Source of the DNA: Psammoneis japonica
Lineage: Eukaryota
Assembly: GCA_008632985.1 (NCBI GenBank)
Contig: QPGO01000128.1
Location: 1 to 64,000, forward strand
Length of the DNA stretch: 64,000 nucleotides
Direction: 5' to 3'
Shown: positions 1-41,915 of the stretch, piece by piece
How positions within the stretch are numbered: position 1 is the stretch's first letter
Layout: every line of letters starts with the position of its first letter
Notes under the pieces: model-generated
What the model was told of the DNA's origin: nothing
Database searches by the model: none
Seen by the model: the letters and a program-made list of their open reading frames with translations, nothing else
Program-made: the position numbers and the translations under genes

Positions 1-1190
1 ATCCTTGTTCCATCTTTCGAAAATGCAACGGATTCCACCGATCCATCGTGTCCCTCGAGAACATTCCCGCACATTCCTGTGGTTGCGTCCCAAATGCGAA
101 CGGTATTATCATGAGACCCCGAAACAATCCTTGTTCCATCTTTCGAAAATGCAACGGATTCCACCGATCCATCGTGCCCCTCGAGAACATTCTCGCACGT
201 TCCCGCGGTTGCATCCCAAATGCGAACATCATTGTCATAAGACCCCGACACAATCCTCGTTCCATCTTTTGAAAATGCAACGGATGTCATCCAATCATTG
301 TGTCCCTCGAGAACATTCTCGCTTGTTCCCGCGGTTGCATCCCAAATGCGAAGGGTCATGTCCCAAGATCCCGACACGACCTTTGTTCCATCGTTGGAAA
401 ATGCAACGGATGCTACAGTGTCATTGTGCCCCTCGAGAACATTCCCAATCATTCCCGTGGTTGCATCCCAAATCCGAATGGTCTTGTCGCCGGACCCCGA
501 CACGACCCTTGTTCCGTCGTTGGAAAATGCAACGGATGTCACCCAACGATTGTGTCCCTCGAGAACATTCTCGCACGTTCCCGCGGTTACATCCCAAATG
601 CGAAGGGTCTTGTCCCAAGATCCCGACACGACCCTTTTTCCATCGTTGGAAAATGCAACGTATGCCACAGTGTCGTTGTGTCCCTCGAGAACGTTCTCGC
701 ACCTTCCAGCGGTTGCATCCCAAATGCGAACGGTCTTGTCCCAAGATCCCGACACGACCCTTGTTCCATCGTTGGAAAAGGCAACGGATGCCACAACGAC
801 ATTGTGTCCCTCAAGAACAATCCCGCACATTCCCGTGGTTGCATCCCAGATGCGAATTGTTTTGTCATAAGACCCCGACACAATCCTTGTTCCATCTTTC
901 GAAAATGCAACGGATTCAACCGATCCATCGTGTCCCTCGAGAACATTCTCACACGTTCCCGCGGTTGCATCCCAAATGCGAACGGTCTTGTCCCAAGATC
1001 CCGACACGATCCTTGCTCCATCGTTGGAAAATACAACGGATCTCACCAAGTTGTTGTGCCCCTCAAGAACATTCTCGCACGTTCCCGTGGTGGCGTCCCA
1101 GATTCGAACGGTCTTATCACAAGACCCCGACACAACCCTTCTTCCATCATTGGAAATTGCAACAGACTGACATAATCATTGTGTCCAGTC
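1..1190 (-). repeat. Tandem array of 126-bp (42-codon) near-identical WD40 repeats, more than 9 units, truncated by the window edge
   Basis: GAAAATGCAACGGA recurs at 19, 145, 271, 397 and onward (period 126). The minus strand encodes 10 GH motifs and 9 SGSxD motifs. Confidence 0.95.
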
Positions 1191-3617
1191 ATTTCTCTCA
1201 AACAACTCTCTGTGGCTTGTTCCCATGCGGGTGACACAGGGCACCACCATCGGTTAAAGTCATAGTCATACTCTTTCAATCTTTGCAGAAAATCATTCAG
1301 GACTCCATTTCTCTACTTCCATCAATAAATCTTGTCCTAGATCCCAACAGCCGCCCAATAAGTTGCCCGGGAAATTGTCTATAGTCTTTTCTTGTCGCAT
1401 TCAAGGCCAAACCGACTGCTCGACCAATAAGGTGCACAACATCGTCGTTCAACCAATTTTCTCACAGTCCCAACAGACTCTATGGCAGTCCCCGCCTTAG
1501 CCCTCGCCATCAACCAGCTTACATCCAAAACCAGCGATCGTGCTTCGTCCCGCATGCCAGCTGCACACAGATGGGCGACGCCATGCCGCAGTGCATACTC
1601 GACCACTCTATCGTCACAAGAGTATTCGACTGTAGATTGCTTCATATCTGCAAAACCACATTCTTTCAAGAGAGCAAAGCAGCATTGTCCCCAATACCGT
1701 GCCTCTCTATTCCTATCAACGAAAAAGTCATGCGCATACTCACGATTGGGATCGACCAACCAATCCGCGAGACTCTTATGGTATAGATGCATTTTCCAGC
1801 TACATCAACGGTAAAGAAGGAGGATAGCTTCCGTACCGCCTCTCTTCTTTCTATTGCACTGCAGTGTAAAAACGCATCAAGCAAAGTCATGTGAAGTGGC
1901 TCTGCAGCCGTAGCCACAAGCTTGACAATTCGCCATTCTAAACAGTCAGAGCCGTTGGGCATGATGCGTTCAAATGCTGTATCGTAGTACTCCTCAATAC
2001 CCTCGGGAAATCCGTCCAATAATTGCTCATTGATATCGTCTCCTTCCCTGTGATGATCAAGAACCATTTGGTTCAAATAAGCGGCACATATAAAGAGGCC
2101 TTTTGATTTCTCAGCAAGAAACCTAGCCGCATTGTTCTCATTCATTCTTGTCAACGTGATCTTGGCCAATGACGTTTGAAAGAAAACACGTATGTCCTGC
2201 ATGTTATAGTCTTTTTCTGGTTCAATGTACACTGGGTCAAACTTGTTTAGTTTGTTCTTGATGTCAACTTCGGGACGACACGTAATGTACACAAAGAGCC
2301 AGGCGGGAAGCTTCATGAAATGGCGCTGGATGCAATCGAGAATGTTGTTCCTCCCACCATGTTCGCACTCGTCGAGAGCATCAATGATAATAGCATACCT
2401 TTTTTTGATTGACATTAACGCTTCTGAGTGGGTATAGGAGAAAATCTGTAAAAAGGGAGATAACACTATAGTCGTTGCTCATGAGACTTTCCCGTGAAAG
2501 TCCATCTTGATCAAGTTTGGATTCAACTTTGGCTTTGAATTCAGGAAAAGTCTGCGCCAATTGATATATAAGCGAGAGAATCAATGACTTGGGATTGCTT
2601 CGGCCGGGGTCGTCATGGCGACAAAAGTGATGAGCAAGTATGTTGTGAGCGCGTTCCTTGACAAGCTTGCACGCGATTCCCGTCTTTCCAACGCCAGGAG
2701 CGGCCATTAGCACTAGCATATGTCGTTTATCCATGTTGTCCTCTTTGGAGAGCCATTCGTCAAATGCAGCCGTTGCCCACCCGCGTGTACCCGGCGTAAG
2801 ACGCTTCACTTGCTCAGAAATGAATTCCCTATCATTAAACGGACGAAGGATCTTCTTCAGTGCTTCCGTGCTTGAGAAATCATTTTTACATTCTCGGAAC
2901 CGCTGAACAATGGCATTTATTTCCTCATGGGTGCCCTCCTTCTGAAGAAAAGTAAGAATTCTGTCCTTATCACTCGCTACCGTTGCATGTGCGTCTGAGA
3001 CACTGGAATTTTTATCTAGAAAGGTATTGGGACCACCCAGAAATGTTCGATCGGGGTGCAACTTGAGTTTGTGTGCATAGATAATCTCGCATACGCACCA
3101 GATGCGGCTGTACAAGTCTTTCCTTGAGTTTCGCACCACGAGAAACAAAGAGGCACGTTGTAGAGCCTTGGACAAACGGCGAGTCCTCGATTGGACCGTC
3201 GACTTGATCCCCCACAACGGCTGCACTGCCTTGAATCAGTGCAAAGGAGCAAATCCACAAATGTGGCTTTGGCTCCTTTGAAGCAAAAGCTTGCCGAATG
3301 GACTCGACAAAATCCGCAAATGGTTCATCCCACGAATGCGAGACAAAAGAACCAATCTCCAGACCGTTAGAATTGAGATGAAGAGCATACGATGTCTTTG
3401 ACTCTCGACAAACAGGCTCAACAAAATCTTTCACAATATCTCGCATGGTCTTTGCAGGATATTCGGATTGGTAGAAACGCGACGCGTCTCGGTGAAGCTC
3501 AATAAGCTGGTCATAAGAGATGCAGCATTTACTCGGATGAGTTTCAGTTGACCCAGAAGCACGGATGGATGGCTGCTGGTCCGCGTCGAGTCCGATGGTG
3601 GTTTGTTCATCATCCAT
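1..3617 (-). CDS. HNWD-like STAND/NLR protein: N-terminal HET/TIR-like domain, NACHT NTPase and C-terminal WD40 array. Runs off the window start and has about five frameshifts (pseudogene or assembly indels).
   Basis: Joined minus-strand ORFs 3012-3617, 2381-3226, 1666-2466, 1379-1792 and 1043-1279. N-terminal FVSHSW...LWICSFALIQ...LYSRIWCVCE. NACHT motifs PGTRGW, Walker A AAPGVGKT, HHFC, LIYQLA, Walker B IIIDALDEC, KGLFICA and LYHKSLADWL. My translation of minus-strand 1167->1 is stop-free and gives WD40 repeats (LEGH....SVAFS.DGTR.VSGS.DKTVRIWDA). Confidence 0.85.
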
Positions 3618-5659
3618 GTTGTTTCGATGATCTGTTAATAGTTGTCTCTTTTCGTGACGCCGTCAATGACACCGCACACCGTACAATAGAAAACAACACA
3701 TCCAACTGCGCACAGCGAATAAGGTCTCACCGTTTCCTGTCCTCTGAAAGAACACCCTTGAATCTTGTGTTTGAACTGCACACATGGCAATCTGGGTGCA
3801 TGCCGTTGGCCAAATGGTATGGGTGCATTGGATTGCTGTTGCCTGCACTGGCTGCACTCAGACCATGATGATTGGCTCAGCACCCAATCGTTCTCACACA
3901 CATCCCAGCAAATGCACATCCAAATTTGCAGTTGACCAAGGAAATGAGGGCAATTTTTGGGAAGGAACACCCAAAAAACAAGACGATTGCGGCAGTGTGC
4001 TGTGAGGCTTTTTTGGTGGAGTGTGCTGTTGGTCAAAGCATGGTGGAGACATCGCCATTTCAACACCACGGCAAGCAAAACGATGCACTGCAGCAGTGTG
4101 TCTCATGATGGGCGCTCCCTCACCAGAAGTCTTCTGCAACTGCCCAGCAAAGACAAGGTGCAGACATGCCCAAGGGCTTTGTTGCTGACATGCTGGTGAG
4201 TCTGAGAGTGCTGCCAAGTCTCCACAAGAGCACTTCAGAGCTGTTTGTTGACAGCACACAAAACGCTCATGTTCTTCCTTGGCTTGGTCGTTTTTGGTGA
4301 CTGTGGGGAAGAGATTTGGCAGCATTTTCTCACAATGCAGTCACAAACAGCACATCACTGCAAAGGCCTGAGCCTCAAAATGTGGGCATGGAAATGACAG
4401 CACTGCCACCCCACCACAAGTGTTTCAGAGCTGTTTTGTGGTGATGCACAAAGATCCTCTGAGTGCCTGGTCCAGCAAATTTTTGCAGATGGAGCAACAC
4501 TCTTTGTTGTGGCTGCAAAGATTTGGGGTGCAATGACCCCAACCAAGCAGATTTGTTGCATTGAGTGCCAATGATGGGCTGGACATGCAGGGCTGGCAAT
4601 GATGTCACCTCAAGCACATTTCACAGGAGCTGTTGTGTGGGGTGATGCAAAAATGCTCTGTGGCATCATTTTTGGCAATTGATGATTCAGCACCATGCCT
4701 TGCACATGTTTCTGCTGCAACAGCAACAGCTGGATTGGCACAAAAAATGACTCTGAGTTCACCCCTCTGTGCACCCCAGTGGCAATGCAGGCAGCAGCTC
4801 TTTGATCTGCAGGGTTGTTCTGCATTGTGCATGGCGTGTGCAGCCCACGTTGCTGCTGCCCCAACTCCTTCCTTGTGTCAATGTTGATCACTGTTCAGTT
4901 GATGGAAACAATCACTCTGATGATGGATTGTGGTGTGGGGCCACCTGGAGCTGAGGCGGGCAGCGCACCAACACGACGAGCAACACAGAGATCACAGCGA
5001 CAAAGGATGGCATCTTTTTCAACCACTGCAGCGCTGCTCTTTGGGGCCAAACTGGGTGCCTTTGGCACCCACCATGTGGCGGGGTGGAAAGCTGCGCCCA
5101 TGCTTGCTCTCTTTCTTGTGCGCCCCAACCACGCGGCAGGGTGCGGAGGCAATGGCATCTGCAGCAGTGCCATTCTGCATTGTGTCTGGCACAGTCCATG
5201 CCATTGCCACTTCCACTTCCTCATGGCAATGACAATCGTTGCTTTTTTTGTAGAAACAATGTCATTTTGATGCATTGGCTGTGATTTTTACATTTGCAAC
5301 ATGACGTCAGAGGGCTGCGGTTCAACCATTCGTTCATTCTGTGGGTGCGCAAAAGCAACAGTTGGTGGTGGGCAATTGGTGGGCCAGTGTGCAATTTGCA
5401 ACCACGCTCTTCTGTCGCAGCATGTGGGAAATGCAGATTCTGTGCACTGATGGGTGGGTGCAGATGCAGCAGTGTCTTGACTTGTGTTGCAACACCCTCA
5501 CCCTTCTGGGGTTTGTCACACTGGTGTCTGCTGCAACTCTTGCACGATTTGAAAGGATTGTGGCCCAAACGCGCATCTCAAGCTGTTCCCCCTGATGCCA
5601 GTGACACCGCAATCTTGTTGCCATTGACACACTGACCAAGAGACAGACAGCTCTGCTGG

Positions 5660-8600
5660 GATTCACTTGGTCCCTGCAAATTGGCAATGCTTTGCCGGTT
5701 CATCCACTTGAAACATCCTCTCACAAAGAGGTGAGACACAAACCCAATTGGCCACCAGCCAGTCTGGCTTGGGAGGTTGCAAGGCGTGAACGCAAATCAT
5801 GAGCCCTGGACCCTGGACTTTGGCTGTGAGGGACCACCGCTGCCAAAACAGGAACAAACACAACTGCCAATGCAGCTCACCTGGCATCAACTTTGTCAAC
5901 AAATCTGCCAAATTCATCTCCACATCTTCATTTCCAAGTCGCATGATTCCAGCTGCAACTGCCTCTCTCACTGTGTGACAGTTGACTGTGTTGTTGTGCT
6001 TCTTGTGCAGAGCAGATTCCAGGACACTGACATTCTTCACCATGCTGTGGTTGTCACAGAACACATTTGCTGCTCTCCATCCAATGGCACACCAAACACA
6101 TGCCCAACTTGCAATGCAAAGCAACAATCACGTCCTTGCAAATGTGCATTGCAACCAACTCACTGCTGAATGCAGAAGACTCAGCTGCATTTTGTTGCTT
6201 GCTGAGCCACACAATTGGAGAGTCATTGACAAAGATGACAACGCCAGAGTGTGACCTGTGCATGACAACATTTCCAGCATGGTTCACATCATCAACGAAA
6301 GCGTGCACAGTTGCCGGGTTCCACATGATGGCTTGGGCATGTCAGGTGGTGACTCCTCCTCAACATCACCATGGAATTGGTCCAATCTGCCGCACTGTTA
6401 AGGGGGGTCATCCCCCACTTTTTTAGCTCGAATTTGGCCGAATGGCTCGGGATTTGCATGATTTTTCTTGAATTTCACCGTGCTTCACCGTGGTGAAAAC
6501 ATCAAGCCATAAGTCTGTGACGGAGGTGGGCCGTGCGTCAACTCTCATTTATTTTATGCTTGTTGTGTATCTAAGGTCACAGATGCATCAAATGTTTGCG
6601 CACGGACCACTGCGTTTTGGACTTATGTCTATGTTACCGTCATCGTCGTGCTTCGATCACGGTGCCTGATGTTCTCGTTTTCGTGCGCGATCGGGGGTGA
6701 ATGTAAATAATTTTTGTATTCAAAAATAAACACTATAAATGTCCTTATTCAAATGCCACGATAATTTCTAGGATAATGTTGCGCAGTTTTGCCATCATGT
6801 TTTTCCCATGCTGCCTTCACCTTGGTCATTTCTTTGTTGATTGCTTGAGCCCAGCAGCATGTCCCCATTTCACGATCAATCTGCAGTGCTTCATGACTGC
6901 TCTTTGGCAATTTGACCCCAAACTTGTGTGTGATTCTCCAACATTTCAACTTGACCTTTGACATGGCAGTGTGACTCCGCTTTCTCAGCACACAAGGCAC
7001 CCACCAAGCAAAAGGGGTGTTGTCTGCAATTTGATTTGCCACTGCGCACTCAGCCACTTTGATTGGGTTAGAATCCTTGATGTCTTTCAATTTGACCCAG
7101 TTGGAACTGCCGTCGTTCCATGCCACAAGCAACTCCCAGTCTTTTGTTGTCTTCCTCTTCTCATCTTGGCCTCCTGCAGTCTCGACTGCACCGTCATCCT
7201 TCAAAATTGCTTCCCATGTCATCCGGTGGTCTTGCACTTCATGCAAAACAGAGAACTGATGACCCTCATCATCAACCTGAGCAAACACATTTTCAGCTGT
7301 GACATTGTTTGCAGCACACTTGTCTTTCGTTCCATCCGTGTGTTCAATTTTTGCACTCTCTTGCATCAAACAATGGGCTCTGATGTCTTCTTTCTGTTGG
7401 TTTGCTGTCATGGCCTCTCACTCTCTTTGTGACCACTCCACATCTCTCCCCTTCTGTTCCAAAATCAAGGATCAGTTCCATGCCAAGGTGCTGGTCTGTG
7501 GCTTCCTCGTCATCATCATCAGGACGCGCGCCCCATCTGTTGGCATGCTGCCATGTTCTTTGTCATCTGGCATGACACCTCCTTGATGCTGCACTGCATT
7601 GTCCCCGTCTGTTGCACAGTCATCCAAACAGAATGCTGGGGCTGCCTTGTCTCCCTCAAGCATGAAATTTTCATCATCCAAACGTTCCGTCAAGGCTTCA
7701 CCAAACTCATCAATCCACATTTCCTTTTGTCCAATTCAACATGGTCTGCCTGCACAGGTTGCAGTCCAACAGCACATGTCCAATCTGACCTTGTGTGACA
7801 TGCCAAGCCATTTTCTGAGTCATTTTGGGTCTTCAGCTGCACTTGGCTTCAAATCTGGTCTATCCCACCACCAAACCAGGCCGCAGAATCCAAAGTCTGG
7901 GCACTCCCCAATCTCTGGTGTTTGTCATGTCACTTCTTCATGTCCAGTTTTCCTGTCTTGACCTCATGCCAATCTTGACAGCAACTCTGCTTCATGTGGA
8001 AGACCAAAATCCCATGGCCATTTTGGAACCTTCTTCTTGTTCATTTGCAGTCTTCAGTGCTTGGCCAGGAAACTCATCTCCCACACTGCTGCATGGTTCT
8101 GGTTCTTCCTGCCCTGTTCAGAGTTCCTGAGCTGCACCCACATGTGCCTTGCATGTTTCACAAAATCTGCATTCTTGCCAGTGAATTCTCCTGCCTCATC
8201 CATTGACAAGAACTTGGGTGCTCCAACGTCATCTGCAAACTTGAATGGAGACCATCCTGCCTCTGACCAAGCCATCATTGGGACAACCTTTACAAACTTT
8301 CCCTGAGTGCAAACATCAGCACAAGTGTCGCCAACAATGAACTTGACCTTTGAGATGAGGGTGTCAGCAAACCATGTCCCTTTTGGTCTCTTCTGGTGCA
8401 AATCCAAGTTATCCACGCAAACACGCCTCAAAAATGGTTGCGTTGCTGTCCTGACACTGTGCTGAGTCATGACATTGAGAGTGTCCTTTGCTGTTTCTGG
8501 GCCAACATTCCATCACTTCTGTGCCAACTCCTCCACCGTGATCTTAGAGTGCTGATCCTTTGTGCAAAGTTCTGAGCCCTTTTTCTCTGGCCTGTCAACA

Positions 8601-9950
8601 TCCTCCCCATGGGCACACGCAATCTTTGCAGATGCAGTCATGTGGTCACAAAACATCTGAAGGTGATGAATCAGGGAAACACTTGCCACAGCCTTCTCAA
8701 CTTCTCCCCACCGGACTGCCATGGACTCACCTCCATCTGCTCTTGCCAACTCTGACATCTCTGACTTGTGCATGTGTGGCATCAATGATTGGATGGTCCG
8801 CATGTCCTGTTGCTCTCTGGTCTCACTCGGGAAACCCATGTCAACTTCTGATGGATTCCAAGTGTTGCCTGCAAGCAGGGCTGTGGGCAAATTCTGCTCC
8901 TCCCATTCTGTGGGCACACAAGACTCAAAAGACACCACTGTCCCAGTGGCTTGAAAAGGGATGAAGGCTTCTTCTGTTGGTGAAACACCAAAGCTGTCTT
9001 GGGGATTGCAAGGGTTGTAATTCACTGAGACATTGCATGCCTGCAGCTGCTGATTTGGATCCAAAACATGACATCTGGTCACCCAATGACAAATGTTTGA
9101 TCATTGCATCTGGATCTGTCCAAACAGTGCAACATCGCGCAACTGGAATTTGGTTGACCCATCGCACAATTCCAGGAATGAACTTGCTTCACACATTTCA
9201 TTGGTGGTCTCCATCAATTTCCAGTTTGCTCCTCTGCACAACATGTGTCTGCATGAGTGTCACATTCATTGCAGGACATGTGGCCGGGAACCACATTGAG
9301 ACAATTGTTGCATTCACTGACTGTGCCAATCTCTTGGAGGTTGCCTTCACTTTTTGAAAGCTCTTTGCAATGTTGTTTGGGTGGGGCTTAGACAGCATGA
9401 GCAGCAACAGCAGAGACAATGCAATCGTGTTTGTGTGATGTGCAAAAAAAGCTGAAGCCGCCTTCACCCCACACCATCAGATGTGTGCATGGGCACCACC
9501 ATGTTGACCTCCTTTCTCATTCTCTCATCTGTGTCCACATCCATGACCTGCACTTGCAGCATCGGTTGGTGGTTGTTCCTGCTGTTGTTGCATCAATTTG
9601 TCTGGATTCTGGCACACAACAGCTGCCTGTTGTCCACCGGGGCTGCCACGTCCACATCTGGGACTGTTGCCTTGTCCAGCCATGCACTTGCGGGCTTGCA
9701 CAACATGCACTTGGCCACCATTGAACCTCAGTTGCTGCCATTCATTTGGGGAAAAGGTGTGAGTGGGATCTGCTGTGTCCACACTGTCAATCATTGCACC
9801 CGCACCTCTGCCCTCTGCCACCGAATTGTCCCCTGCCATGCCTCTGGGTTCACGGCCTCCACCACCACCTCCTTGGGGGGGCCTCTGCCACTGCCTCAAG
9901 TTCAGCCCCCACCTGGGCCTCTGTCATGGGACTTGGTTTGGTTTTGCTGT
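5660..9950 (-). mobile_element. Degenerate Ty1/Copia LTR retrotransposon (diatom CoDi-like): gag end, protease, integrase and RNase H; RT core missing
   Basis: Protease-like NECDTHADTCC and IPVARCCTVWTD (about 9100-9270). Integrase GTWFADTL, FADDVGAP, AGEFTG, SEQGRKNQNHAA (8054-8470). WELLVAWNDGSSNWVKLKDIKDSNPI...FAWWVP (6749-7411). RNase H FVDDVNHAGNVVMHRSHSG, SSAFSSELVA, VFCDN, VNCHTVREAVAAG, NLADLLTK (5830-6330). Many stops and frameshifts. LTRs not resolved; possible PPT/LTR start near 5665-5680. Confidence 0.9.
6402..6776 (+). mobile_element. Non-autonomous DNA transposon (MITE) copy 1; left TTAA and TIR present, right TIR missing
   Basis: TTAA at 6398-6401 followed by GGGGGGTCATCCCC. 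The body aligns with 34127-34520 (e.g. TGAATTTCACCGTGCTTCACCGTGGTGAAAAC, AAGCCATAAGTCTGTGACGGAGGTGG). It ends at GGATAA, where Copia sequence resumes. Confidence 0.85.
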
Positions 9951-12900
9951 GGGATCCTCAAAAATTCCCTGGGGTTGCCACCTTTGGCAGTGTTTTTCTG
10001 TGGGAAGCGTGAACTCTTTGTGGGGGGGGGGGGGGGGGAGCACAAGTGATGCTTCGTCACATGCATGCTCAACACATGAATGAAAAACAATGCATTGACA
10101 ATTCCCCATGCTTCCCCTCTTGTACATTTCTGTGTGCTCCTTGTGTCAGCATGTGCAGAACCACACACCAGATGTGTGCAAATCAACAACAATTGAAATC
10201 GACCGACCGCAACAAAAATGGGCAACACACCATGGAGCGTTTGCACCCCAGCTGTGATGGCTTTTGCCAAACAATGACAACACCAGTCAATCTGGTGAAC
10301 AACACCACAATTGACAGTGTAAAATGTAAAATGAACAAAAGCTTGACAGATTGTGTTCAGAAAAATGGTGCACTGGTGGATCATTGCACTTGTTCTTTTG
10401 TTGTGCAGTCACAAATGCAAGCCATGAGGCATCTGCAGCAAAGTCCAAGGCAAAAGCAGAACTGTTTGTGGCCAACAAAAATGTGGTGGATTGAACAGTC
10501 ATGCTTGTTCTTCCAGTTGATGCATCTCATGTGCAGAGTGAAGCGAGTTGTTTGGGTGGGAATCACTCTGTTGTCATGCAGCTGTGGGTGGGGACGCAGT
10601 GGACATCATGCAGAAACGGATTTTCTTGGATCAAAATGAGAGTCATCTCCTGTGGAGATTTGCTCCCCTGGTGGTTGAAGGGTTGAGGTCACATCTTCTA
10701 GTGTGTTGAACTCCAGCTTTGTCATCCTTCCCAGTTGTCCATTTGACATGGGTTGAGCTGAGGGTGCAGTTGCTGGAGTCAAAGGCATGACCAACAAAGA
10801 CGTTGAGGGCAAACAAGCAGCATCGTGGGGATCGCAACAGCAGACTGTGGAAACTCAGCAACAAGCAGCTCCCGACAATTGTTCAAGCACTGCATCTTGG
10901 AAAGAGAAACATCTAGATGTGTTGCCTTTCTAAGTTTGGGCCAAAACCACTGCTGATCCAAACTCGTCATCACCTTCTGCTGCTCATGGTCCTCTCCATG
11001 CTTGACAGTGCGGTCGACCATCCACGAACAAAGGTTGAGTCGACTGCCAAAGATGCTGATCATGCTGACCATGCTGGATGCAAAGCCCCACATTCTCATG
11101 TAAATCACAACTGTCATGTGAGTGTAAAGTTCGCGCTGCCCTGGACAGTCCAGAACTCATCGTCCAAAAAATCATCTAAATGATCCTGCAGCCACTCCAA
11201 GTGCTGCAGAAAACATTCCATGCAACAGTCAGTGGTCCATTTGGCCCCAGCCCAAGCTCTTCCATGACATCCTTGATGGAAATTAAGTCTCTTACATCAG
11301 AGAACACATCATGCCAAAAGGTCTTGACAAAAGTTTGCAACATGTGCTCTTTGATGCCTTGCACCGGTTGGAGTCACACAGTGCTGTTGCGTGGCATGAC
11401 AACAGGCACTTTTGCCCAAACCTGCCGGTCCCTGCAGCACTGACAAAAAGAAAAGTGTGAGAGACTTGGTCGGCCAGCGATTGCGGTTGCCTTTTCGTGC
11501 TTCTCACAGATGCCACAGCACATGCCATTGCGATTTCAGTTGCACAACGTCCATTTTGATTGAGTCTAACCAGGAATGTGTTGCTCACGCAACATTGCCA
11601 TTGGCAACTGCCACAAGTGCTGTGTGTGTTGTTGCCTCTCTTGCGTGCAAATGTCAATGAGTTGTCCCCAGGGCATTGCTGTTGAGCACAGGTTGACTGG
11701 CATTTGAGGCGTCAGACTGTGCTGCTGCTGCATGCTCCCGTGCCTCCACATCATGAATCCATTTGTTCATTCTGTGTGATTTTGGGAACAACACTCAAGA
11801 GCACTTGTGCTGTGTGAGCAAAAAAGAACACACTGTGCGACGAGGCAAGAAAGCAAGTTCTGATTCAACTTGCACGTGTGCACAGTGCTGCGCGCACTTT
11901 GTGCACTCGCCTCTTTTAGAGCAAACACTGCACAACATTGTGGCTTTGATTTTGCAAGATGTCATGGTTCAGGCGGCTCAGTTCTGTCTCATGAAAGCAC
12001 CATTTGGATGACGGCATGTTGCTCAGATGAGATGTGAACAAGTGACGTGTTCCAGCCGCACATGACCCAAATCGTGCACAAAAACAACATTTGCGCGATT
12101 TTTGCACGGTCTCTGACTTACAAACGGTTTTTCACCACCAAAAGCATAGATTTGTTCAAATTTGAATGTTTTGCAACACTGACAAGACTCGTGTGAGTGT
12201 TGCAAAATCATTGTTGTTGTGCCATCAATGTTTTTCATTGCGACAAACAAACGAATCGTAACACAACGGATGATTTTCGGCAAAATTGTTGCCGTTGTTT
12301 GGGTGCCAACCAAGTGTGTCTTTCTATGATGCTGCTTAGCAGGTTTTCTGCTTGCAAAGAAATCTCAGCATAAAATGTGCTGACGCACAATCAGCGTTGA
12401 GTCCACTGAGGAAGTTTGTGATGCATGTCCCATGAGGACTTTAATGCCCCACAAAAAACTGTTTAAATGTTCATGCTCCAGATGCCCACAAAAGCCAATC
12501 CACTTGAACATTTTACATTAAAATGCTTCATACACTAAAAGGCACATAATTTGCATTCAAAATCGATTGTCATTTTGTGTGTCACCTGGGGCTGGAACAC
12601 GTCAAGTCCTTCTCAGACATTTCAAAATCACTTGATTGGGCGGCCGCCAACAGTCACACTTTGGTGCGCCCCGCCTGATTATATGATGGCGGACATGATG
12701 GCATCAAAAGCACAACTCTTTGTGATGATCCTGTGGGTGCGAAAGCGATTTGGTGCGAAACGGTGTGTTTGCTGGTCAGGTGTCGACATTGCTCAATGTC
12801 TCAACCAAATCATTGTTTGAGACAGCCCTTCAGCGTGCTCCACCTAATTAGATGATGGCAGATGCAATGCTTCAAAGGGGCTGTCTGAAACAGTGATTCT

Positions 12901-13690
12901 GAGGGTGCGAAAGCGATTTGGTGAAAAATGGCAGGTTGATTTGGTTGGCGCATAGCCAAGGCTGTGGAGGGAGTTGAAAGCTCGGCCTTGCGCGTTGTGA
13001 TCGCACGTTGAGTCTTATGAATCGTGACAATGACCATTTTTTTTTGGTCACGACGTTGACGACCGCCATGGTCCATTTGGGCAACGAGGTTGGAAAGGCC
13101 TTGCATGCGGCGGGTGTGCCCATTTCAGGCAAGGTTCCTCACATTTTTGATTGGTTGGCGGTCCATGTCTACAATGAGCCTCCAGACTCGAATTTACAAA
13201 AGTTCTTTCAAACAAGCGACGCCTACAAGGGCTTTCGGTGTCCATTGGTTCAATTCATATTTTACCGAAGACATTAATTTGGGATTGTGCGGGTACAAGG
13301 GCCTTGCTGAAATTGTAAACGTGCAAAATCCCACCTTTGACGAAATTATTTTGTGGGCGCAAAAACATATGGGCAAGTAGTTTTTGAATGCCGACGGTAA
13401 ACTTGAGGGCAAGGATATTGGCGAAACCAACGCGCCTCAACGATTCGGCATCAACACGATTGATGATTTGAAACAGATGTACGCTAGTGACAGTAGCTAG
13501 GGTTGTAAAAGGACGAATTGAAATCATGGACTATGCATTATATTCCATAGATTGCAAGTCTGAATTGGTTTGTGCCTGCTCATCCAAAGTTCAAACTCGA
13601 CAAAACGTATTCTAAATAGCAAAATGCAACAATCACGGCCTCTTCTGATTATTCACACGCACACATGCACACCCTTCTCTCTCTTATTGT

Positions 13691-19519: not shown

Positions 19520-22500
19520 AAAACCAAGAAGTGAAGCTCCCCATGCAGCAAACGAAACCAAGAAGCAATTCATGAAACAGTGGAAATGAAGATTTGTGTG
19601 CACATCCCAAAGTGTCGGTTCAAACAACACCTCCCCACCTGCGGTGCAGTCAGGAGCATGTTGTGGGATGTGATCAAAGAGGCGCTTGGACTGCTGCATC
19701 CACTGGCTGGCAATCATAGTTCCGCAAAGAGACTGACACAGTGAAAGGTCGCCTTCACCAGTCATTCTCTTCTGCATCACTTGACGGCGAGGACAAAACA
19801 CCACTGGAAGATGAGCTCAAGTTGAACCTGCCCGGCTCCATCTTGGCGGCCGCCCTGGCCGGGGCAACAGATGGTCGAGCGGCAGGTTTTCGATCCAAGT
19901 CAGAATCATCATCGCTGTCGCAGAGATCAATCACGAGGCCCTTGTTGGCAGCGTTGTCGAAAATCTTTGTGATCCGGGCCTCGGCGCTGTCACAGCAAGG
20001 ACATCAAGTTCCAAATCCTCCCGCTCAATTCCGAGCAACTCCACCGCGTCTCGCTGCATCTCGGCAAGTCGGTTGAGATGAGGTGGGAGTTTATCACGAC
20101 ATTCTCGGACCTTGCGTTGCATTTCGGGATCAAGCTGGCCGGAAGCCTCACTTTGGTTGTCCCACGCGACGGAGTGCACACTTTCGAAGGTCCTCCACAG
20201 AATCTGCACTGTGGCTGAAATCTTTGAACAAAGCTGCTCAATCAATTCACCAATGGCTTTTAACAACTCCACAGTTGAACTGCTAAACATGGACTGGACG
20301 CTTGAGGCAGCGTGTGAGTTCATGGCATGCTTCATGCGGTCAAACTTGCCTGGGCCACCAGGGACGCTGATGGTGGCAGTGTGGCCACTCTTCATGTGAG
20401 GTTGAATCTTTGGCAACAACGATCGATTGAGAGTTCGTTGACTGGAAGCGGTGGTCTCTTTCATTGACTGAAAAGAAGCCTTGGCAGCTGTCTTGCAGCT
20501 GCGGCTGGCAGCGTTCATCATCTGCGAAATTCTGTCATGAGACAAACCGGCTTCAGCGAGTTCGAACGACAACGATTTGTCGACAGAAGCGCACACAGCC
20601 AAAATTTCAGCTTCGCATTCTCCCAAGAATGCTCTCAATGACAAGTCCATGATCTGCTGCCAATCTGAGCTGAACTCTTTCTCCATGGGATCACAAAGCT
20701 CTTGATTCAGATCGACTTCACCAGCTGATGCCGACGCATGGACGCCGTCGCGGCGAGCTGTTGCAAAGTGGGTAGACCAGTGAAGCCCATTTCTCTGAGG
20801 GCTTCGATGATCGCGGCTTCTCCGGCTTTTTGAGCCCCACGAGGCAAAGGTGGCCATTGCGGCAGCGTTTCCTTTCTTGGCACCCGCCTCAAGAGCAGGG
20901 CGCAGTGCAGACCGAACTTTCATCTCAGCCTTCTCGTGGAATTTTGCATCGGCAGACTTCACTTTCTCATTCAACAGATGCATCTCCTTTTCAAATGCAG
21001 TCTTCAGGTTTCGAGAGGCTCGCCCACTGGGAATGTCTTTTGCATCAGCTGCGACAAGTTTCACTCGATCCAACATGTCACTTGAGGCAGACACAAAAGC
21101 TTCCGTGAATGTCGCCCGTTGTCTTGCAGTGGTGTCGTGGACAAACGCACAGAGTGACGGGATTTGAGCATCAGCCGCGGATGAAAACGTGCTTGGTGGC
21201 CCATCAGTCGATGGCTTGACACCTTGAATCTTGAGGCAGTCGTTGGCACTGATGCAGTGAACATCCATGTCAAAATCGTCGGGAATGGGAGGGGCGTCGG
21301 CGACAACATCGTCCCCACCTTCATCTTCTCCACGAGTTGACTCTTCCAAACCCGCCCGGAAATCATCCTGAAGGCATTTCTTGCTGCACTCGTTTCGCAC
21401 TTCGGCGCATGAGGGCTTGAGGCGAAGCTGCAGTCTACGAGACTGACTGTTCAAACTGTTGAGTTTGTCGCCATTGGCCTCTTTCCACGTGTCAAGTCCT
21501 TTCAAGGTAACACGGAAATGGTCTTTCGAAACCTGGATCGCAGATTCAAGTTTCGCATGGGCTGCGTCATTGTCGACAATCACACCATCACTGTCGACAC
21601 TGCCAGCATCTTCATCTTCTTCAAATTCCTTGAGCTCTTGCTTCGCCTCCTTCCAAGCTTGTCTAGCGCACTCCTTCTCTGCTTTCAAGTCTTCCTCTTC
21701 GGAACGCAAATTTGCAAGTTCCTTGTCAATTGTGGCGAGTTGATCCGAAAGATCACCAATTGTCTCCCATCGCCCAGGCTTCTCCACAGCCACGTCCTGG
21801 TGGTCCCGCATGGTCTCCATGGGTCTGCAATCATCAGTTTGAGTGCAGACAAATGCAACATTGCCGTGCTGACCATCCATCAGCAGCCGTCGCTTGAATT
21901 GTTCTCCCAAAAGCTCCTTTGCGGTTCCATCATCCACAGCCCGTTTGATTGGGGCAACAACCCAGATTTGACTGCAATTCTGCAGGTGCTGTTCCGAGAC
22001 TCTGGCTCTGGCCGTGTTTGCGTCACGCACGCCGGGGAGATCAACGAGACAAGTGCCAGCAGACAGAACTGGCCATGGTCCTTGTAGAACAACCTTTCGA
22101 ATCAAAGGCCAAGTCTGCGGCTCATTTCCATTGCCCTTTCGGCAGATGAATTCGTTGACAGTGGATCTAAATTCGAGTGCCCACTTCTTCTTCTTTCGGC
22201 GAAGTCGTCCACTCATCTTTCCAAATCCTTGCAACAGGGTGGCGGCGGCATCCGTGTCAGCCTGGCCCTTTTCCACAATGATGGAATTGTTCCTGTTCGC
22301 GTCCATCCTGTGAAGCAAGAAGCCTGTGCACTCGCTGATCACGTGAAAGGTCAAAATGCAATTGCTCGCTGCTGCATCCGTGACACCTGGACATCTTTCC
22401 CCGTCCACAGACTTGTTCCATCTTGCTCCATGCAGCTGCTGCTTCGGGTTGGTGCTGCTCATCTGGAACAAGGGCGCAGATTTTCTTTTTGTTGTGAGTG

Positions 22501-25380
22501 CTGCGTTCATCAATCAGAGTGCGAAGCTCATCCAACCACTCGCCATGCTTGATGAACTCGACTTCACCCTTGCAAACAGGAACTTCCTCCTCAATCGCAT
22601 TAGACAGGTCTGAGTTGAAGCGGAGTTCCACAATGGCAGCCGTGCAACCACGAGAGCCAGAAGTCGGCAAAACAGCCGATTCTTGAATCAAGGCATTCAG
22701 CATGCTTGACTTGCCAGCACCTGCATTTCCGAGTGCGCCAATGGTCACATGTGGTGCCGACTGGGCAAGGCTTTGAGCAATCTCGTTAGACCATTCTTGG
22801 CAACAATTCTCAGAACAAAAGAGAGGACTCTCCTTGAGCATCGCGTCGACATCCCTTAGAACACTGCAACTCTTTTCCAGAGCCGAGTCATGCAGTTTGT
22901 GAGCCTTGTTCTCCGCTTCAGTTTCATGAACTGTGATCTTGTCGTTGTTCTCTTCCTCGTCGTCAAGAAGCACAATCTCCATCGGTGACGAGGCGTCCTT
23001 GGCCGGCGAGTTCTCGTTCGCTGGGGACTCTGGTGCCTTTGAAGGCTTCTTGGGGCGTTCCGCAGCTCGGTTGTTGTCATTTGCGTCGTCTGCTCGATTG
23101 TCCTTTGTGCTCTGGCCATCAGAGTCGAAATCGCTGTCGCTGTGGTGATTCATGGATGCATTCGCATCGCACACATTCCCGGCATGAAAAGCAGCGGATG
23201 TTTCGAGAGTCACGCCTTTAAAACTCTCGTTTTCAGCCTCCTCGCCTCTTTCTTCAGACGGCACTTTCTTGGAAGGTTCGAAAGCATCAACCATTTCAAC
23301 GTTGCTTGGTGCAGAGTCAGTCTTGTTGTTGGCACTGTCTTCCTCGGAGGTCTTGTTTGGCAAGACAGTCGGAGGTTCAAAATCCTTCTCCTTCAGATCC
23401 TTGACAGCTTTGGAATCCGTTGAGTTGCTCTCCATGACTCGTTCCAGATTGGGCGTCTCTGGCGCGTCTTCAGGACCATCCACATTGCTTTTGAGGTTGT
23501 TTTCGGCAAGCTGGTTTGGCAAGACCTGTGGAACACTGGTGGGGTTTGCATTCAAAGAGTCATCCTTGCCCTTCTCCGCAGCAGTGAGCCCATCAGATTC
23601 CGGCATCGACTCTTCTGGGTGACTCTCGGCATTGGCACAAGGCTCCTTGGCGTTGTTGGAAGGTGCTGAAACGCTGGGAGCCATGTTCTTGGGTGCGTGG
23701 AAAGACTCTGCAACTTGAGACTGCTCTGTAGAAGGCTCCGTGGCAGCATTTCCGTCTTCTTGACGAGATTTCTTAGCCGCTAAGACTTCATCTTCAGAGG
23801 TGCTGATGACAAGTTTTCGCTTCTTCTCGTGAACACTGATCGTCCTCTCTCCCAGATTCCAACACAAGAGACGATGCTCTTGCTTTCTAGACAAGCGCAC
23901 ACCATCACAACAAAAACAGCACTCGCCCTTGGGAAGCACATCATAGTCAAATTCGTCCTTGATGAGTTGACGCACGTTTGCAAGAACGTGCGACGAATTG
24001 ACTTCGACAAATCCTCGATCGTTGTCGCCAGTGCAAATCACAAAAGGCCTTGTCAATGTCGACACTGAACTGGGAGCATCATGCTCAATGCCAGTGCTGG
24101 CACTGTCACCCATGGTTGTTGCAGTCTCGATCAGAATGAATCATCAATCAATCAACAGCAACACGACGGTTGCCATCATGCAATGAGGTGCGGGCTCATG
24201 CATCGCGTTCATTTTTGAATTCAAGATTTATTTGTTTGGCGCAATCCAGTTTTGAGTCGCGTGAGGAGTCCTCGCCCGACTGCACACAAACTGCAAATTC
24301 ACTCGACGGACCTCGCGCAGGAAAAACCGCAAAAGCACCATGCCAAATGCCAAACGCCAGTGCGGCGACCATCACCAAAGCATCAAAACGACAACAGCAA
24401 CTCTGTCCAATCTCATGACCTCTGTCAGAACAAGATTGATGGGGGTTTTGAACTGGGAAATTCAGACAAAGAAGGCAAACCATCTCGAAAGGAGGAGCGT
24501 CATTTCGGCAAAAAAATGGAAGCAGCAAAAGAAGTCCAGGTGGGAGGAGCCCATTGGCAATGTGGAGCAGGTGTGGAATGTTTTGGTCGATTGTTTGAAT
24601 GAAGGCCCGACATCAGATTTTGTGAGCAAGAACAGCCGACAGGACAACACTTTCTGCCAAATTTTGACGATTTTGTCACAGGCGCGCTCCGCAGTGTGCC
24701 CTTGTGGAGATGTGGACAAGGTTTCAAAGGCCACCCAGGCTGCATCATGGCACCCATGACATGGTTCACTGTCTGTGTGCATTGGGTGTTTGCTTTGAAG
24801 AACTCCAGCAAGCCGACACATTGCACACCTTCAGCTTCTAGAGACTTTGAGTGCAGCCAGAGGAATCCCCCATTTCCATGAAACTTTCACATCTTCCCAC
24901 GCTGTTGGCGCAAGCTCATCGGCAGACTCTCAAGACAGCTGTTTTGCCGCTTGTTCAGCCACTGCACAGATGGGACAAGCACTGGAATCCTGGGACATTT
25001 TGCGTGCATTTGCTTCATTTTGTTGTGATGTTTGAAGCTTCAACCACAGAGAATCATGAGCCCATTGCTGATGATTGTCCGCTTGTCTCCAAAACTGGAA
25101 TCTGCAGCACTCGTGAGCTGAAGGACACACCGACTAAAAAACTCGTTCATCACTTTTCTTGTCCCTGGATCAAAAATGACAGTGAGCCGAGTGTCAGAAA
25201 AAGAACCCCTTCTTCTGTTTTTGAGCTGTGAAACTGTTGCTTGCGGCCTTAGCGTCTTCTTTTCTTTGCATGGAGAGAGGCATCCCGAGATCCTGCTTTG
25301 AGTCACACCGGTGCCGGTGTGAGTCGTCCGTCAACGAACTTGTTTCGGCCAACTTCAACGAGTGGATTGACTCACTGTTC
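19520..25380. other. TpA-erased domain 2, with CpG largely retained in the GTPase gene body
   Basis: About 20 TA by eye across 19.5-24.1 kb while CG is abundant (e.g. GCCGACGCATGGACGCCGTCGCGGCGAG at about 20730). Confidence 0.9.
19931..24113 (-). pseudogene. Dynamin-like (nuclear GTPase SLIP-GC type) GTPase gene, TpA-hypermutated, with frameshifts near 22300 and 19980
   Basis: G1 GNAGAGKSSMLNALI, LPTSGSRGCTA, WPLIRKV, G3 LVDLPGVRDAN, IWVVAPIKRAVDD, FVCTQTDD, VHCISANDC, GLHWSTHFATARRDG. One Tyr in the 618-aa ORF and none in the 860-aa ORF. Confidence 0.85.
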
Positions 25381-25634
25381 GACTCCGTATGTACACACTG
25401 GTACAAATCTGAGGATAAGCTCCTTTAACGTTACGCTGAATATATAGATATGAATATCAATGTCCGTCCAACCGTAATGTCCACAAAATCATTCCATCGA
25501 TTGCAACTCACGTTTTTCGCACAATAGGGCCTAGTGACTTGAGCGTTGCAACTCCAGCTAATTCATCGCTCTCCAGAACTTTTCGTAGTTGCCATAATTT
25601 TCTGAGGCATCGACAATCGAGGCTGCTCAAACCC

Positions 25635-26516
25635 ATGTCTAGAATAGTCGGACTTTTCAGCCGTGCAGGAGGCGCAGTAGTTCTTTTGGGCATTGCCATC
25701 TCGTCGTGTTTGGAAGATGCCGCGGCCATAGTTGAGGACAATGTGGTTATCAAATCGAAATTGAGACGTACCAATAGCCAACGCGTTATCAGTGGTGCCT
25801 TTGATAAATCAGATGTGGTCAAAGCAGTCGAAGATGAGGCTTTCTGGGACCGTTTTCTTGAGTCGCCTGATGGTTCTATGGTTGTCCCCACCATGTCAAC
25901 ACCGGTGCCCACTCCTGCCCCGCCAACACCCGCCCCCGTTGTGACACTCCTACCAACTCCAGAAGCTCCCTCACCGTCGGATGCTCTTGGTGGATTCATT
26001 CAAGACATCTTAGATTGCACAACTGGCATTGACGATCTTTCAAAGCTTTGGCATATTCTCGAACAATATGGCATCACCGACGTTGACAATGTTATCTCCC
26101 TCTTCAATGAAACTCTCCTTGAGAATATTTTCGACCTGTTGAACACTATTGACCTATCTGGCATTGATATTGCGGACCTGTTGAACATTACGGACCTGTC
26201 GAACATTACGGGCCTATCGAATATGACCGATATTTTAAACATTCTCGACGTGTTGGGCACTGTTGACCTATCTGGCTTTGACATTGCGGACCTGTTGAAC
26301 ATTACGGACCTCTCGAACGTTACCGACCTATCGAATATGACCGATATTTTAAACATTCTCGACGCGTTGGGCACTGTTGACCTATCTGTCTTTGACATTG
26401 CGGACCTGTTGAACATTACGGACCTCTCGAACATTACCGACCTATCGAATATCACCGATTTCTTGAACATTACCGACTTTCTGAACGTAAGTGCAGTGAT
26501 GCAAGATGGAAAATAA
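25635..26516 (+). CDS. Predicted secreted protein with a Pro/Thr linker and C-terminal D-L-[SL]-N-[IMV]-T repeats
   Basis: ATG at 25635, signal-like GAVVLLGIAISSC, diatom-type EAFWDRFL segment, PTPAPPTPAP, then 38-aa repeats made of hexapeptides containing N-x-T. Confidence 0.7.
   Translation: MSRIVGLFSRAGGAVVLLGIAISSCLEDAAAIVEDNVVIKSKLRRTNSQRVISGAFDKSDVVKAVEDEAFWDRFLESPDGSMVVPTMSTPVPTPAPPTPAPVVTLLPTPEAPSPSDALGGFIQDILDCTTGIDDLSKLWHILEQYGITDVDNVISLFNETLLENIFDLLNTIDLSGIDIADLLNITDLSNITGLSNMTDILNILDVLGTVDLSGFDIADLLNITDLSNVTDLSNMTDILNILDALGTVDLSVFDIADLLNITDLSNITDLSNITDFLNITDFLNVSAVMQDGK
26133..26490 (+). repeat. Coding tandem repeat with a 114-bp period (about 3 units) built from 18-bp subunits
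   Basis: TGCGGACCTGTTGAACATTACGGACC at 26171, 26285 and 26399. Confidence 0.9.
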
Positions 26517-27502
26517 CAAAGAGCGCCGTACTCCCGACGTTTATACGAGAAGTTCTGCATGTGGATCACCTATGCATCCTTGTCCCAACATTTTGGGATC
26601 TCTGTTGTACTCACTCCACTATAGCCGTAAGACCAGAAGCCCGAGACTTGACTGTCACCGAAGTCCAGCACAATATATAAATGTTTGTCATATTGTTACT
26701 GATTTCATGTAGCCCATCATTGCTGTAGACTAATTCTTTGTTGGTAATCTTAATCTGTAACTGGTGGAACGGCGTGATGACCAAAAGGGCAATCCGCCTT
26801 TTTGTGCCAGGTGGCGGGAAACTGAGTAATCTGCGAAGATGACGGGAACGAACCGGCCTTGCCACGAACGAACCTGGTAGGCCTTGCTGCAAAATCCTGA
26901 GTTACTTTTGCGACAGAATGTGCACTGTCGCAGCATTCTCTCTCCTTTCTACGGTCGCCACTAAATTCCTTTTGAGCAACAGGATCGCGTCGAGATCACA
27001 CTCCAAGCCGTCAAATTATTTTGGATCATCGGGGAGGCAACCGAGACAACCACACAACTCATTCGGTGACATCAAGAATAGCAAATAAAAGCAGCAACTC
27101 GTGACAGGTTCGATTGATAATGTTCTTTCGCGCGCTGGCGCTGATGAGTTCGCGGATTGAAGTTCGCGGATCTGTTATCGAAAGCGATCGTTGACCGTCG
27201 ACGGACGTCAAGCATGATAGTTGGGATCCGCGAACTAATGCCGGTACTGAGTAAACTTTCGAAGCGAAGTCATCGATAAATATTTTCGAGCAAGTTGTGC
27301 GGTTGCCGTTGGCAGGCACGTTCTCTTCGCTTTTTCCCATATCCTGCATCGATTTTCCCTCACAAGAACAGCTTGTCCCGCAGCGAAACCAAAATAATGT
27401 GCTTTCGAGTTGTATTCGAGGATCAAACCATTTGGTTTGTTTCATGATGATTGCTCTGTCTCACAAAATTCAAAACGACGACAAAGTCACAACAACAAAA
27501 AG

Positions 27503-31560: not shown

Positions 31561-31898
31561 GGACTATTTACAGCACAGTGTCGTGGATGCGGTTCGCGGG
31601 TTGAAGTTTTATAAAAGTTTATCCGCGAACCATACTGCAACAGCCAATGCCGGTATTGAACAAAAGCAGAAGCGAATCATCATCCGCATTGTTGTTTTCG
31701 TGCAAATAATGACTTTACCATTAGCAAGCATGTGTCTCTACAAGCATCCTTGCCCACACAAGAACAGCTTGTCCCGCAGCGAAACCAAAATAATGTGCTT
31801 TCGAGTTGCATTCGAGGATCAAATCATTTGGTTTGACTCATGATGATTGCTCTGTCTCACAAAATTCAAAACGACAACAAAGTCGAAACAACAAGAAG

Positions 31899-34520: not shown

Positions 34521-35049
34521 TTAATACCGTGCGTGAAAGAGGTGCCATAGCCGTAAGCCCGGTACATTGTCTGTTCTTCAACCCACTACACGTTAAATAC
34601 ATACCACGACTTACGTTAAGATCCCAGGCGCGGACAGACATTCTTTCCGAAGCGGTGGATTTTTGGTTTGGAGTTGATAGATGATGGATGCGCCGACCCA
34701 CAATCCGCCTTGTTGGAGCTGTTCTCCATCGTTTTCGTTCATTGAAGACATGGATGTTACTTTTGGGAGATCGTACCATTGGCTGAGGTCCTTGGTTTGG
34801 TGAGAACAAACGGAGTTGTCGTTGTGAAGAAAGCAAGTTTTTCTGTTGTCTCAGCCATTTCTGAGCAACAAAACCCACAATCGGATGTTCATTCATTCAT
34901 TTCACCTCCTCTGTTCAATGCCATTGCTTGTGTCGAACTAACACAGTTAAAGAAGGCATCCCATGTCTTGGGTGTGATGTGGGTGGGGGCTGTGGCGAGA
35001 AACATCTTTCTCTCGCATTGGACAAGAAACACCAAAAAACATGGAATTG

Positions 35050-38890: not shown

Positions 38891-38892
38891 CA

Positions 38893-38926
<34 letters not shown>

Positions 38927-38928
38927 TG

Positions 38929-38960
<32 letters not shown>

Positions 38961-39001
38961 AACAGCAGCAACAACAGCAACAGCAGCAACAACAGCAACA
39001 G

Positions 39002-39033
<32 letters not shown>

Positions 39034-39064
39034 ACAACAACAACAACAACAACAACAGCAGCAG
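38891..39064 (+). repeat. (CAG/CAA)n microsatellite, about 58 triplets
   Basis: Read directly; flanked on both sides by AAGTTTGCAAGCATGGC. Confidence 0.97.
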
Positions 39065-41813: not shown

Positions 41814-41915
41814 TCGGGAACTCAATTGAAGTGTCATCTGACCAAAGGCATTTTAATTTGCTGCATGGTGAAGAGCAATGCCTTTGGTCAGATGACACTT
41901 CAATTGATTTCCCGA
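41814..41915. repeat. Near-perfect hairpin: 39-bp arms (one mismatch) and a 24-nt loop
   Basis: TCGGGAACTCAATTGAAGTGTCATCTGACCAAAGGCATT versus AATGCCTTTGGTCAGATGACACTTCAATTGATTTCCCGA. Confidence 0.93.

Follow-up and report, generated by a model that had tools for sequence, protein, structure and literature searches.

Does the beginning of this diatom contig carry a receptor gene built like the HNWD genes of the fungus Podospora anserina, and if it does, what kind of domain stands at its head? The window, that is, the whole stretch of DNA analysed here, comprises 64,000 nucleotides of Psammoneis japonica (assembly GCA_008632985.1, contig QPGO01000128.1, positions 1 to 64,000), and the gene in question is a single minus-strand gene, which starts with the ATG at 3617 and continues past position 1, the window edge. 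We regard it as a real and probably intact HNWD-like receptor. Its parts are those of a cytosolic STAND (signal transduction ATPase with numerous domains) protein resembling NLRs (NOD-like receptors), with a predicted TIR-fold head, a NACHT switch, a putative helical arm and a WD40 propeller of at least nine blades, which makes it a complete sensor-switch-effector candidate in an alga.

The segment 3540..3617 holds the start codon (3617-3615) and a leader of 26 residues, and homology to the relatives begins at about residue 27. The TIR/HET-like head of about 220 residues (2882..3539), recognised by its motifs and by family homology, is read in two frames joined at about 3170 and contains FVSHSW (3347-3330), WICSFALIQ (3257-3231) and SRIWCVCE (3109-3086, with the Glu codon at 3088-3086). 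It is followed by a NACHT-type STAND ATPase (2000..2881, with a frame break at about 2400), identified by Pfam and by the motifs Walker A AAPGVGKT (2704-2681), Walker B IIIDALDE (2391-2368), ITCRP (2286-2272) and GLFICA (2100-2083). The gene thus has a central NACHT ATPase with both Walker motifs; in Pfam this region scored above the cut-off as NPHP3_N (E 7.5e-14), and the NACHT model itself reached only E 0.015, below the cut-off. The next region (1175..1999, with breaks at about 1803, 1490, 1450 and 1304) would, judged by position and homology, comprise a winged helix and an APAF1-like helical arm; its Pfam APAF1_C match (E 0.0054) is below the cut-off, and it is 35-40% identical to the intact relatives L001, P0154, P0155 and P0157. 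The WD40 array (3..1174), preceded by a break at about 1172 and open at the window edge, consists of eight full 42-codon units and two partial ones; it matches Pfam WD40 in 10 stretches (E 2.4e-114) and has a 126-bp period with 9.2 copies and 82% matches before it runs off the window. The head motifs, NACHT domain and WD40 array named by the first-pass annotation, a reading of the letters alone, are all present on the minus strand. The same annotation attributed the missing WD40 open reading frame (ORF) to the window edge, which is one cause; seven one-base frame breaks are also responsible.

That these parts form one gene follows from the relatives. Intact relatives align across the 3170 break, and head and NACHT are fused in the single ORFs P0060, P0158 and P0148. 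The metagenomic contig L001, one of six loci found, carries head, NACHT, helical arm and WD40 repeats in this order, with 43% identity over 550 residues. Among the best 120 of 7,592 matches to the WD40 piece, five have a head of this family (E 2e-21 to 2e-7), four of them green-algal, namely three from Pseudoscourfieldia marina and one from Cymbomonas tetramitiformis; four of the five have the order head-NACHT-WD40, and in the Cymbomonas protein, P0179, the WD40 array comes first. The head profile of these five proteins and that of the diatom type matched each other with a probability of 99. Separate unrelated genes are ruled out by the fused relatives, and the proposal that a HET/TIR-like head, a NACHT domain and a WD40 array make up one receptor gene stands. 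The nearest NACHT domains also carry other heads (P0154-P0157, L002-L006), thus heads are swapped on this ATPase clade. In these proteins the N-terminus starts with MGG or MGS and continues in a helical region, and they lie on low-GC, eukaryotic-looking contigs; the WD40 units of L004 and of L005 are 77-78% identical.

The coding sense changes frame at all seven breaks (at about 3170, 2400, 1803, 1490, 1450, 1304 and 1172), and one way to read this is that the copy is a pseudogene or a truncated allele, with intact copies elsewhere in the genome. Introns were considered as another cause of the breaks and rejected, because the relatives align across them without loss of residues and the contigs differ by one base. 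The read-level check of the frameshifts proposed in the first-pass annotation was run with short-read contigs from one sample, aligned over 1170-3800. Of the two runs used, X1 is possibly the window's own source, which suits a frame check and adds no independent support; X2 (30 million letters, longest record 16 kb, recorded, at a guess, as DNA) has no cover upstream of 3631. A third run, X3, contributed no contig to the stretch. Break-free contigs make up the whole X1 depth at 3170 (79.7 of 79.7), 2400/2401 (88 of 88), 1802/1804 (94.3 of 94.3, at 1804) and 1489/1490 (101.4 of 101.5). Since the four breaks at 3170, 2400, 1803 and 1490 are missing from all covering contigs of the same sample, without any short-read contig supporting them, they are assembly errors. 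Substitutions at 3017 and 3120 are also corrected in all contigs, which shows that polishing of the assembly was incomplete in this part of the window.

The breaks at 1450 and 1304 are probably errors as well. The contigs listed as restoring the frame there cover 31.4 of 127.8 and 28 of 115.7, respectively, which includes all X2 depth, and record 9 of X2, representing one variant copy, restores 1304, 1450, 1490 and 1804. By length, records 1 and 2 of X1 have 3 and 2 additional bases over 1223-1598, which suggests that more contigs restore the frame at 1450 and 1304. The 1172 break lies at the edge of the checked stretch, and the relatives continue straight across it. The sample holds at least three sequence variants, three contigs over 1995-2341 differing from the window by 0, 34 and 40 letters, and loose contig ends at 3075-3300 point to further genes sharing the head only. 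One X1 contig, with a depth of 57, lacks 2 bases at 3283, and may be a broken or a more distant family member.

In favour of a degraded copy it must be said that, among the contigs listed, only variant contigs restore the frame at 1450 and 1304, and, given this and the marginal position of 1172, the present copy could be truncated before the propeller. Nevertheless, we regard a pseudogene or truncated allele as quite unlikely: four breaks are gone in every covering contig, the lengths of X1 records 1 and 2 fit further restored frames, the three long contigs identical to the window have no other letters, the substitutions create no in-frame stops, and the non-repeat part of the gene resembles ordinary genes in its CpG (0.92) and TpA (0.53).

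The head itself comes from a protist family that is uncatalogued in Pfam, NCBIfam and PADLOC and has neither a HET nor a TIR label in Pfam. Its profile finds 2,399 clusters at E ≤0.001, the best 150 of which provided the family details given here; 20 proteins were looked up, and the named members are from Seminavis, Acanthoeca, Effrenium, Gymnodinium, Polarella and Breviolum. The head thus defines a family of at least this size in diatoms, dinoflagellates, choanoflagellates and green algae, which the three collections have missed. One matched Atlas cluster is mostly Bacillariophyta, and a second Atlas search returned only rows under 0.8. Within the sequence analysis it is this cluster, the Seminavis member and the look of neighbouring genes that point, indirectly, to a diatom-like host. 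In the head-domain tree the window falls in no well-supported group. The head behaves as a mobile module, whose partners in the 76 longer members scanned include leucine-rich repeats (LRR), membrane-LRR, ankyrin, Roc-COR, CHAT, kinase and WD40 domains, most of these members being without a Pfam family. In seven proteins (P0006, P0026, P0032, P0039, P0042, P0074 and P0093) a hydrophobic stretch and then LRRs come after the head, which amounts to an inverted Toll-like layout; the head stands after Roc-COR in P0076 and P0077 and before CHAT in P0002.

The comparison with HET models, by which the HET assignment of the first-pass annotation was to be checked, turned out negative: Pfam HET (PF06985) matched neither the pieces of the window, with the E limit set at 1 or 10, nor 10 domain rows, nor three distant members. 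Neither HET nor TIR/TIR_2 is among the 25 Pfam families listed for 103 head-family members, and the head gave no match to Pfam TIR/TIR_2, whereas the TIR of Hondaea, used as a control, did match. The family had no match in the NCBIfam or PADLOC defence-system models, and Pfam HET was found in 0 of 401 bacterial genomes and in 0 of 14 controls. Neither prokaryote genomes (220 stretches) nor viral contigs (23 and 35 stretches) yielded a relative in scans with one or two short head patterns, which do not demonstrate absence. The table of the 2026 eukaryotic TIR atlas (PMC13142454), which is possibly a reduced set, contains 0 of the 4 head-family members and 1 of the 6 motifs looked for. A viral structure library contained no match to the head model at E <0.2; its top row was the TIR/WD40 protein A0A2P0VP16 of Tetraselmis virus 1, with a non-significant E of 0.24.

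Six positions of the head are nearly invariant across about 150 relatives: H (145/145), W (144/145), Q (149/150), R (150/150), W (149/149) and E (144/147). Their spacing (H.W, W.......Q, R.W...E) resembles that of the HET motifs. The best sequence match in the PDB was PdTIR (3h16, E 0.19), and structural comparison points in the same direction. AlphaFold models of two relatives, one 51% identical to the window's head (pLDDT, the predicted local distance difference score, 97) and one from a green alga (pLDDT 85), both have the strand-helix order of the TIR core and three extra N-terminal helices. TIR domains came out on top in four PDB searches with the two models. With the first, the first 18 rows listed by Foldseek were all TIR domains (best E 0.015), and VIA gave a best Z of 6.8 with the TIR of SARM1 (root mean square deviation 3.7, 112 residues aligned); the second matched SARM1 with E 8e-4 and Z 7.2 (deviation 2.9, 112 aligned). 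Profile comparison by hhalign aligned a 135-row head profile with 27 TIR sequences (26 bacterial TIR_2 and the Hondaea TIR) over 84 columns, from strand A to helix C, with a probability of 82 and E 1e-5, and the probability for the controls (a reversed and 30 shuffled profiles) was at most 1.6. Only 12 columns aligned when the family profile was compared with the single Hondaea TIR, which had no match in the PDB.

In the hhalign alignment the glutamate of WCxxE falls on the helix-C glutamate of TIR_2, and in the first model the corresponding E156 is in a helix (151-162) that follows strand 136-140. The helix-C glutamate is the catalytic residue of TIR NADases. The head is thus predicted, from the models and the profile alignment, to adopt a TIR-type fold with its glutamate at the helix-C position. 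The first-pass annotation had suggested a TIR/HET fold and a possible catalytic glutamate in WCVCE, and both suggestions gain from these results, the glutamate being conserved in the family and its catalytic role putative. A relationship between the head and HET is likely as well, because Dyrka et al. (PMC4986451) made the same two observations for HET, with PdTIR as best match and a similarity that ends after helix C.

At the other end of the protein, the array has features that may be those of a diversifying sensor. The 42-residue repeats announced by the first-pass annotation are there, whereas their near-identity is not: the eight full units share on average 75% (64-90%) amino acid and 82.5% nucleotide identity. 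The best internal match over 100 residues is 84%, in an array cut by the window edge, which is just under the 85% over 100 residues that defines high internal conservation in PMC4986451. When the eight units were compared with 1,587 foreign ones, each had its closest match within the gene itself. The variable codons of the unit, counted from GH, are 4, 5, 7, 23 and 25. Paoletti et al. (PMC1805685) reported selection in Podospora at codons 7, 9, 25 and 27, around the conserved codons 8 and 26, and by our own mapping, through the 18-residue spacing of the conserved V and D, these correspond to 5, 7, 23 and 25. At these four preset sites pN (nonsynonymous variation) is 0.48 vs. 0.10 elsewhere, pS (synonymous variation) being 0.29 overall, and only 22 of 100,000 random sets were as high. 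The pN/pS ratio at the preset sites is 1.68 (bootstrap 1.05-2.54), and it stays at 1.58-1.83 when any unit is dropped. The variable sites are mostly the same in the green-algal P0180 and in L004. The unit comparison supports, without proving, the pattern of the Podospora NWD genes, in which homogenisation keeps the blades of one gene alike while their binding sites diversify, so that both concerted evolution and diversifying sites of the Podospora type appear to be present.

The first-pass annotation also spoke of an allorecognition receptor, for which we found no evidence. A true allorecognition gene, discriminating self from non-self within the species like het-d and het-e, for example at gamete fusion, would have the layout and the variable sites of the HNWD genes, which are the same here, and the sample, with its three or more sequence variants, would fit it. 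We nonetheless consider it highly improbable. Diatoms are not known to form vegetative heterokaryons, no partner gene is known, and the same variable sites occur in the green-algal P0180 and in L004. Even in fungi most NLR/HET genes are not allorecognition genes (PMC12881547), the figure for HET genes being 5 of 125 (PMC10197012).

We are inclined, with moderate confidence and by analogy, to the following reading of the gene. A foreign or altered protein would bind to the propeller of the STAND receptor, once this is expressed, and the NACHT domain would exchange its nucleotide and oligomerise. The heads, brought together in this way, would cleave the N-glycosidic bond of NAD+ or of a related nucleotide by means of the WCVCE glutamate, and depletion of NAD+ or the resulting signal would lead to defence or cell death. 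A parallel is the TeTIR of TEP1, a TIR-like head on a NACHT-WD40 protein, whose glutamate-dependent NADase activity kills cells (10.64898/2026.09.21.753143). TIR, LRR and NACHT genes are raised in virus-resistant Gephyrocapsa (PMC12489294).

Several points weigh against this reading. The fold evidence comes from models of two relatives and not from the window's own domain, the fold scores are middling, with no Z reaching 8, and the similarity to TIR ends after helix C. Nucleoside deoxyribosyltransferases tie with TIR domains (Z 6.3 for the first model and 6.0 for the second), therefore the substrate may not be NAD+. The repeats of L001 are divergent (24% identity within the array), and the coding frame of this contig is broken as well. 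The lower end of the pN/pS interval is barely above 1, the eight units behind it are not independent, and the surface loops of any WD40 protein can tolerate change. The way in which fungal HET domains kill is unsettled (PMC10890737), and some TeTIR homologs are inactive in spite of the glutamate (10.64898/2026.09.21.753143).

Some of these points would suit the same receptor with a head that is not an NADase, either a scaffold that would bind like with like and so recruit other members of its large family, or an enzyme (N-glycosidase or transferase) acting on another nucleotide. The head recurs as a mobile module with a variety of partners, as adaptor domains do, the deoxyribosyltransferase and MilB-type folds are within 1-2 Z of TIR, and recruitment of adaptors was proposed for HET by Dyrka et al. 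in 2014 (PMC4986451). However, the near-invariant H, Q, R, W and E of about 150 relatives are more suggestive of an active site than of a binding surface, and the best structural matches are the enzymatic TIRs SARM1, RPP1 and SpbK. We therefore judge a non-NADase head rather unlikely, and prefer the nucleotide-cleaving receptor described above.

It is possible, although we regard it as doubtful, that the sensor owes its variation to a process of the host genome. In this extended version, an HNWD-like receptor with an active NAD-cleaving head of an uncatalogued TIR branch would be combined with a TpA-directed mutator of the cell itself, which otherwise hits transposon-like DNA and would feed mutations into the array, as repeat-induced point mutation (RIP) was proposed to do for the Podospora repeats (PMC1805685). 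The array has an observed/expected (o/e) TpA ratio of 0.13. Outside it the gene reaches 0.53, ordinary gene blocks lie at 0.42-0.55 and decayed blocks at 0.02-0.12, and the drop begins at the edge of the array. Given the protein and the local codon use, 9 TpA are seen in the array vs. 42 expected, while the NACHT pieces are at expectation (32 vs. 32.2 and 27 vs. 30.3), and the WD40 arrays of L004 and L001 are not depleted. A single unit was taken as the fair test, since the units are copies; the consensus unit contains 0 TpA vs. 4.2 expected (P 0.006), TpA being the sole outlier of the 16 dinucleotides, and 1 of 85 ordinary 126-base coding stretches lacks TpA. The variable binding-face codon 23 occurs as TAT and as both products, CAT and TGT, and the chemistry of the TpA loss matches one reported in Bigelowiella natans (10.64898/2026.01.13.699255). 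On the other side, the test was chosen after the profile had been seen, and P is about 0.1 after correction for 16; CpG is not lowered, unlike in most decayed blocks; the differences between units show no excess of A-to-G; and of the variable sites only codon 23 fits the products of the mutator. If the TpA loss does come from a host mutator, genome defence would be tied to receptor diversification outside fungi.

The surroundings of the gene show the same depletion on a larger scale. The block directly upstream (3761..13000), which is context and not part of the gene, is decayed DNA by its dinucleotide counts (TpA o/e 0.02-0.10, CpG 0.27-0.33). It contains relics at 5.7-7.5 kb that resemble copia-type retrotransposon proteins of diatoms, although Pfam found no match. 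Together with the blocks 29000-31000, 35000-52000 and 54000-56000, it has near-zero TpA, low CpG and sharp edges toward ordinary genes. On the minus strand, a dynamin-like/DUF7605 gene at 19931-24140 is represented by two long ORFs, which have a TpA o/e of 0.07, with 9 TpA each vs. 67 and 51 expected, 0-0.2% tyrosine and CpG kept (0.81); apparently, this whole gene has been rewritten by the TpA process. Further along, the plus strand encodes a secreted-looking protein (25440-26516), whose 114-bp and 18-bp repeats contain many N-x-T sites, and a tandem pair of secreted laminin-G/lectin genes that closely resemble each other (27398-28582 and 31794-32978), with a TpA-depleted block between them. 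Two ORFs at 62351-63941 (minus strand) presumably resemble the diatom silica-vesicle membrane protein silicanin-1; they have no Pfam match, and a PDB search with the ORF at 62354-63217 found none.

It remains to compare the gene with known systems. With the enzymatic TIRs (SARM1, plant RPP1/RUN1/SNC1, and bacterial TIR_2 such as PdTIR) the head appears, from the models and profiles, to share the core from beta-A to helix C and the helix-C glutamate. It differs from them in having some 60 additional residues (three helices) at the N-terminus, a BB region of greater length, a C-terminal half that diverges, and no Pfam TIR/TIR_2 match. The stramenopile Hondaea fermentalgiana has a TIR_2-NACHT-WD40 protein (P0195), which has the STAND-WD40 layout in a protist, but with a canonical TIR_2 head (E 6e-11) and, by our count, one 42-residue unit. 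Green-algal APAF1_C/WD40 proteins (PMC8891106) likewise have STAND-WD40 layouts, whereas in the Ulva family the ATPase is NB-ARC or missing. The members of the TeTIR family (TEP1, NWD1 and NWD2; 10.64898/2026.09.21.753143) are similar in having an extended TIR-like head directly before NACHT and WD40, a catalytic glutamate and a NACHT region matching NPHP3_N. TeTIR, however, is always directly upstream of NACHT, whereas the family described here is mobile across architectures, and membership in TeTIR was rejected because the RWG loop motif is absent from the window and from all 135 head-family rows (0/135).

Closer to our head are the non-fungal HET homologs of Thalassiosira, Ectocarpus, Emiliania and Salpingoeca described by Dyrka et al. 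in 2014 (PMC4986451), which have the same lineage range, PdTIR as best structural neighbour, and a similarity that is lost after helix C. Compared by description, they differ in being annotated as HET by Pfam and in being shown as single domains, and the accessible part of that paper describes no algal HET-NACHT-WD40 protein. As HET homologs outside fungi, including one in a diatom, have been reported since 2014, the head by itself is less of a surprise than is implied by the title of the first-pass annotation, which announces a fungal HET-E-like architecture in a diatom. A description of a diatom HET/TIR-NACHT-WD40 gene was not found in the literature searched, which covered few subscription journals and, among supplements, that of PMC13142454.

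The word fungal in that title found no support. In a quick IQ-TREE tree of NACHT domains (77 rows) the window lies outside the 53 named fungal rows, the branch having a support of 99 in the approximate likelihood-ratio test (SH-aLRT), in a sample that kept 76 of 143 candidate rows, is biased to WD40 matches, contains no Podospora protein and lost green-algal NACHTs under the coverage filter. Gene transfer from fungi is unsupported by this tree, and repeated origins of eukaryotic NACHTs have been described (10.1101/2022.07.19.500537). From the HNWD proteins of Podospora anserina (HET-E, HET-D as well as HET-R) the gene also differs in having no Pfam HET match in its head, no known partner such as HET-C, and repeats that are 75% identical, compared with >80-100% in the HNWD genes (PMC12222747). 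What it has in common with them is a TIR-related head, a NACHT domain, WD40 units of 42 residues (126 bp), internal conservation, and the same four variable codons on the binding face (PMC1805685). By the tests run, the gene is best described as HNWD-like, standing beside the fungal family rather than within it.

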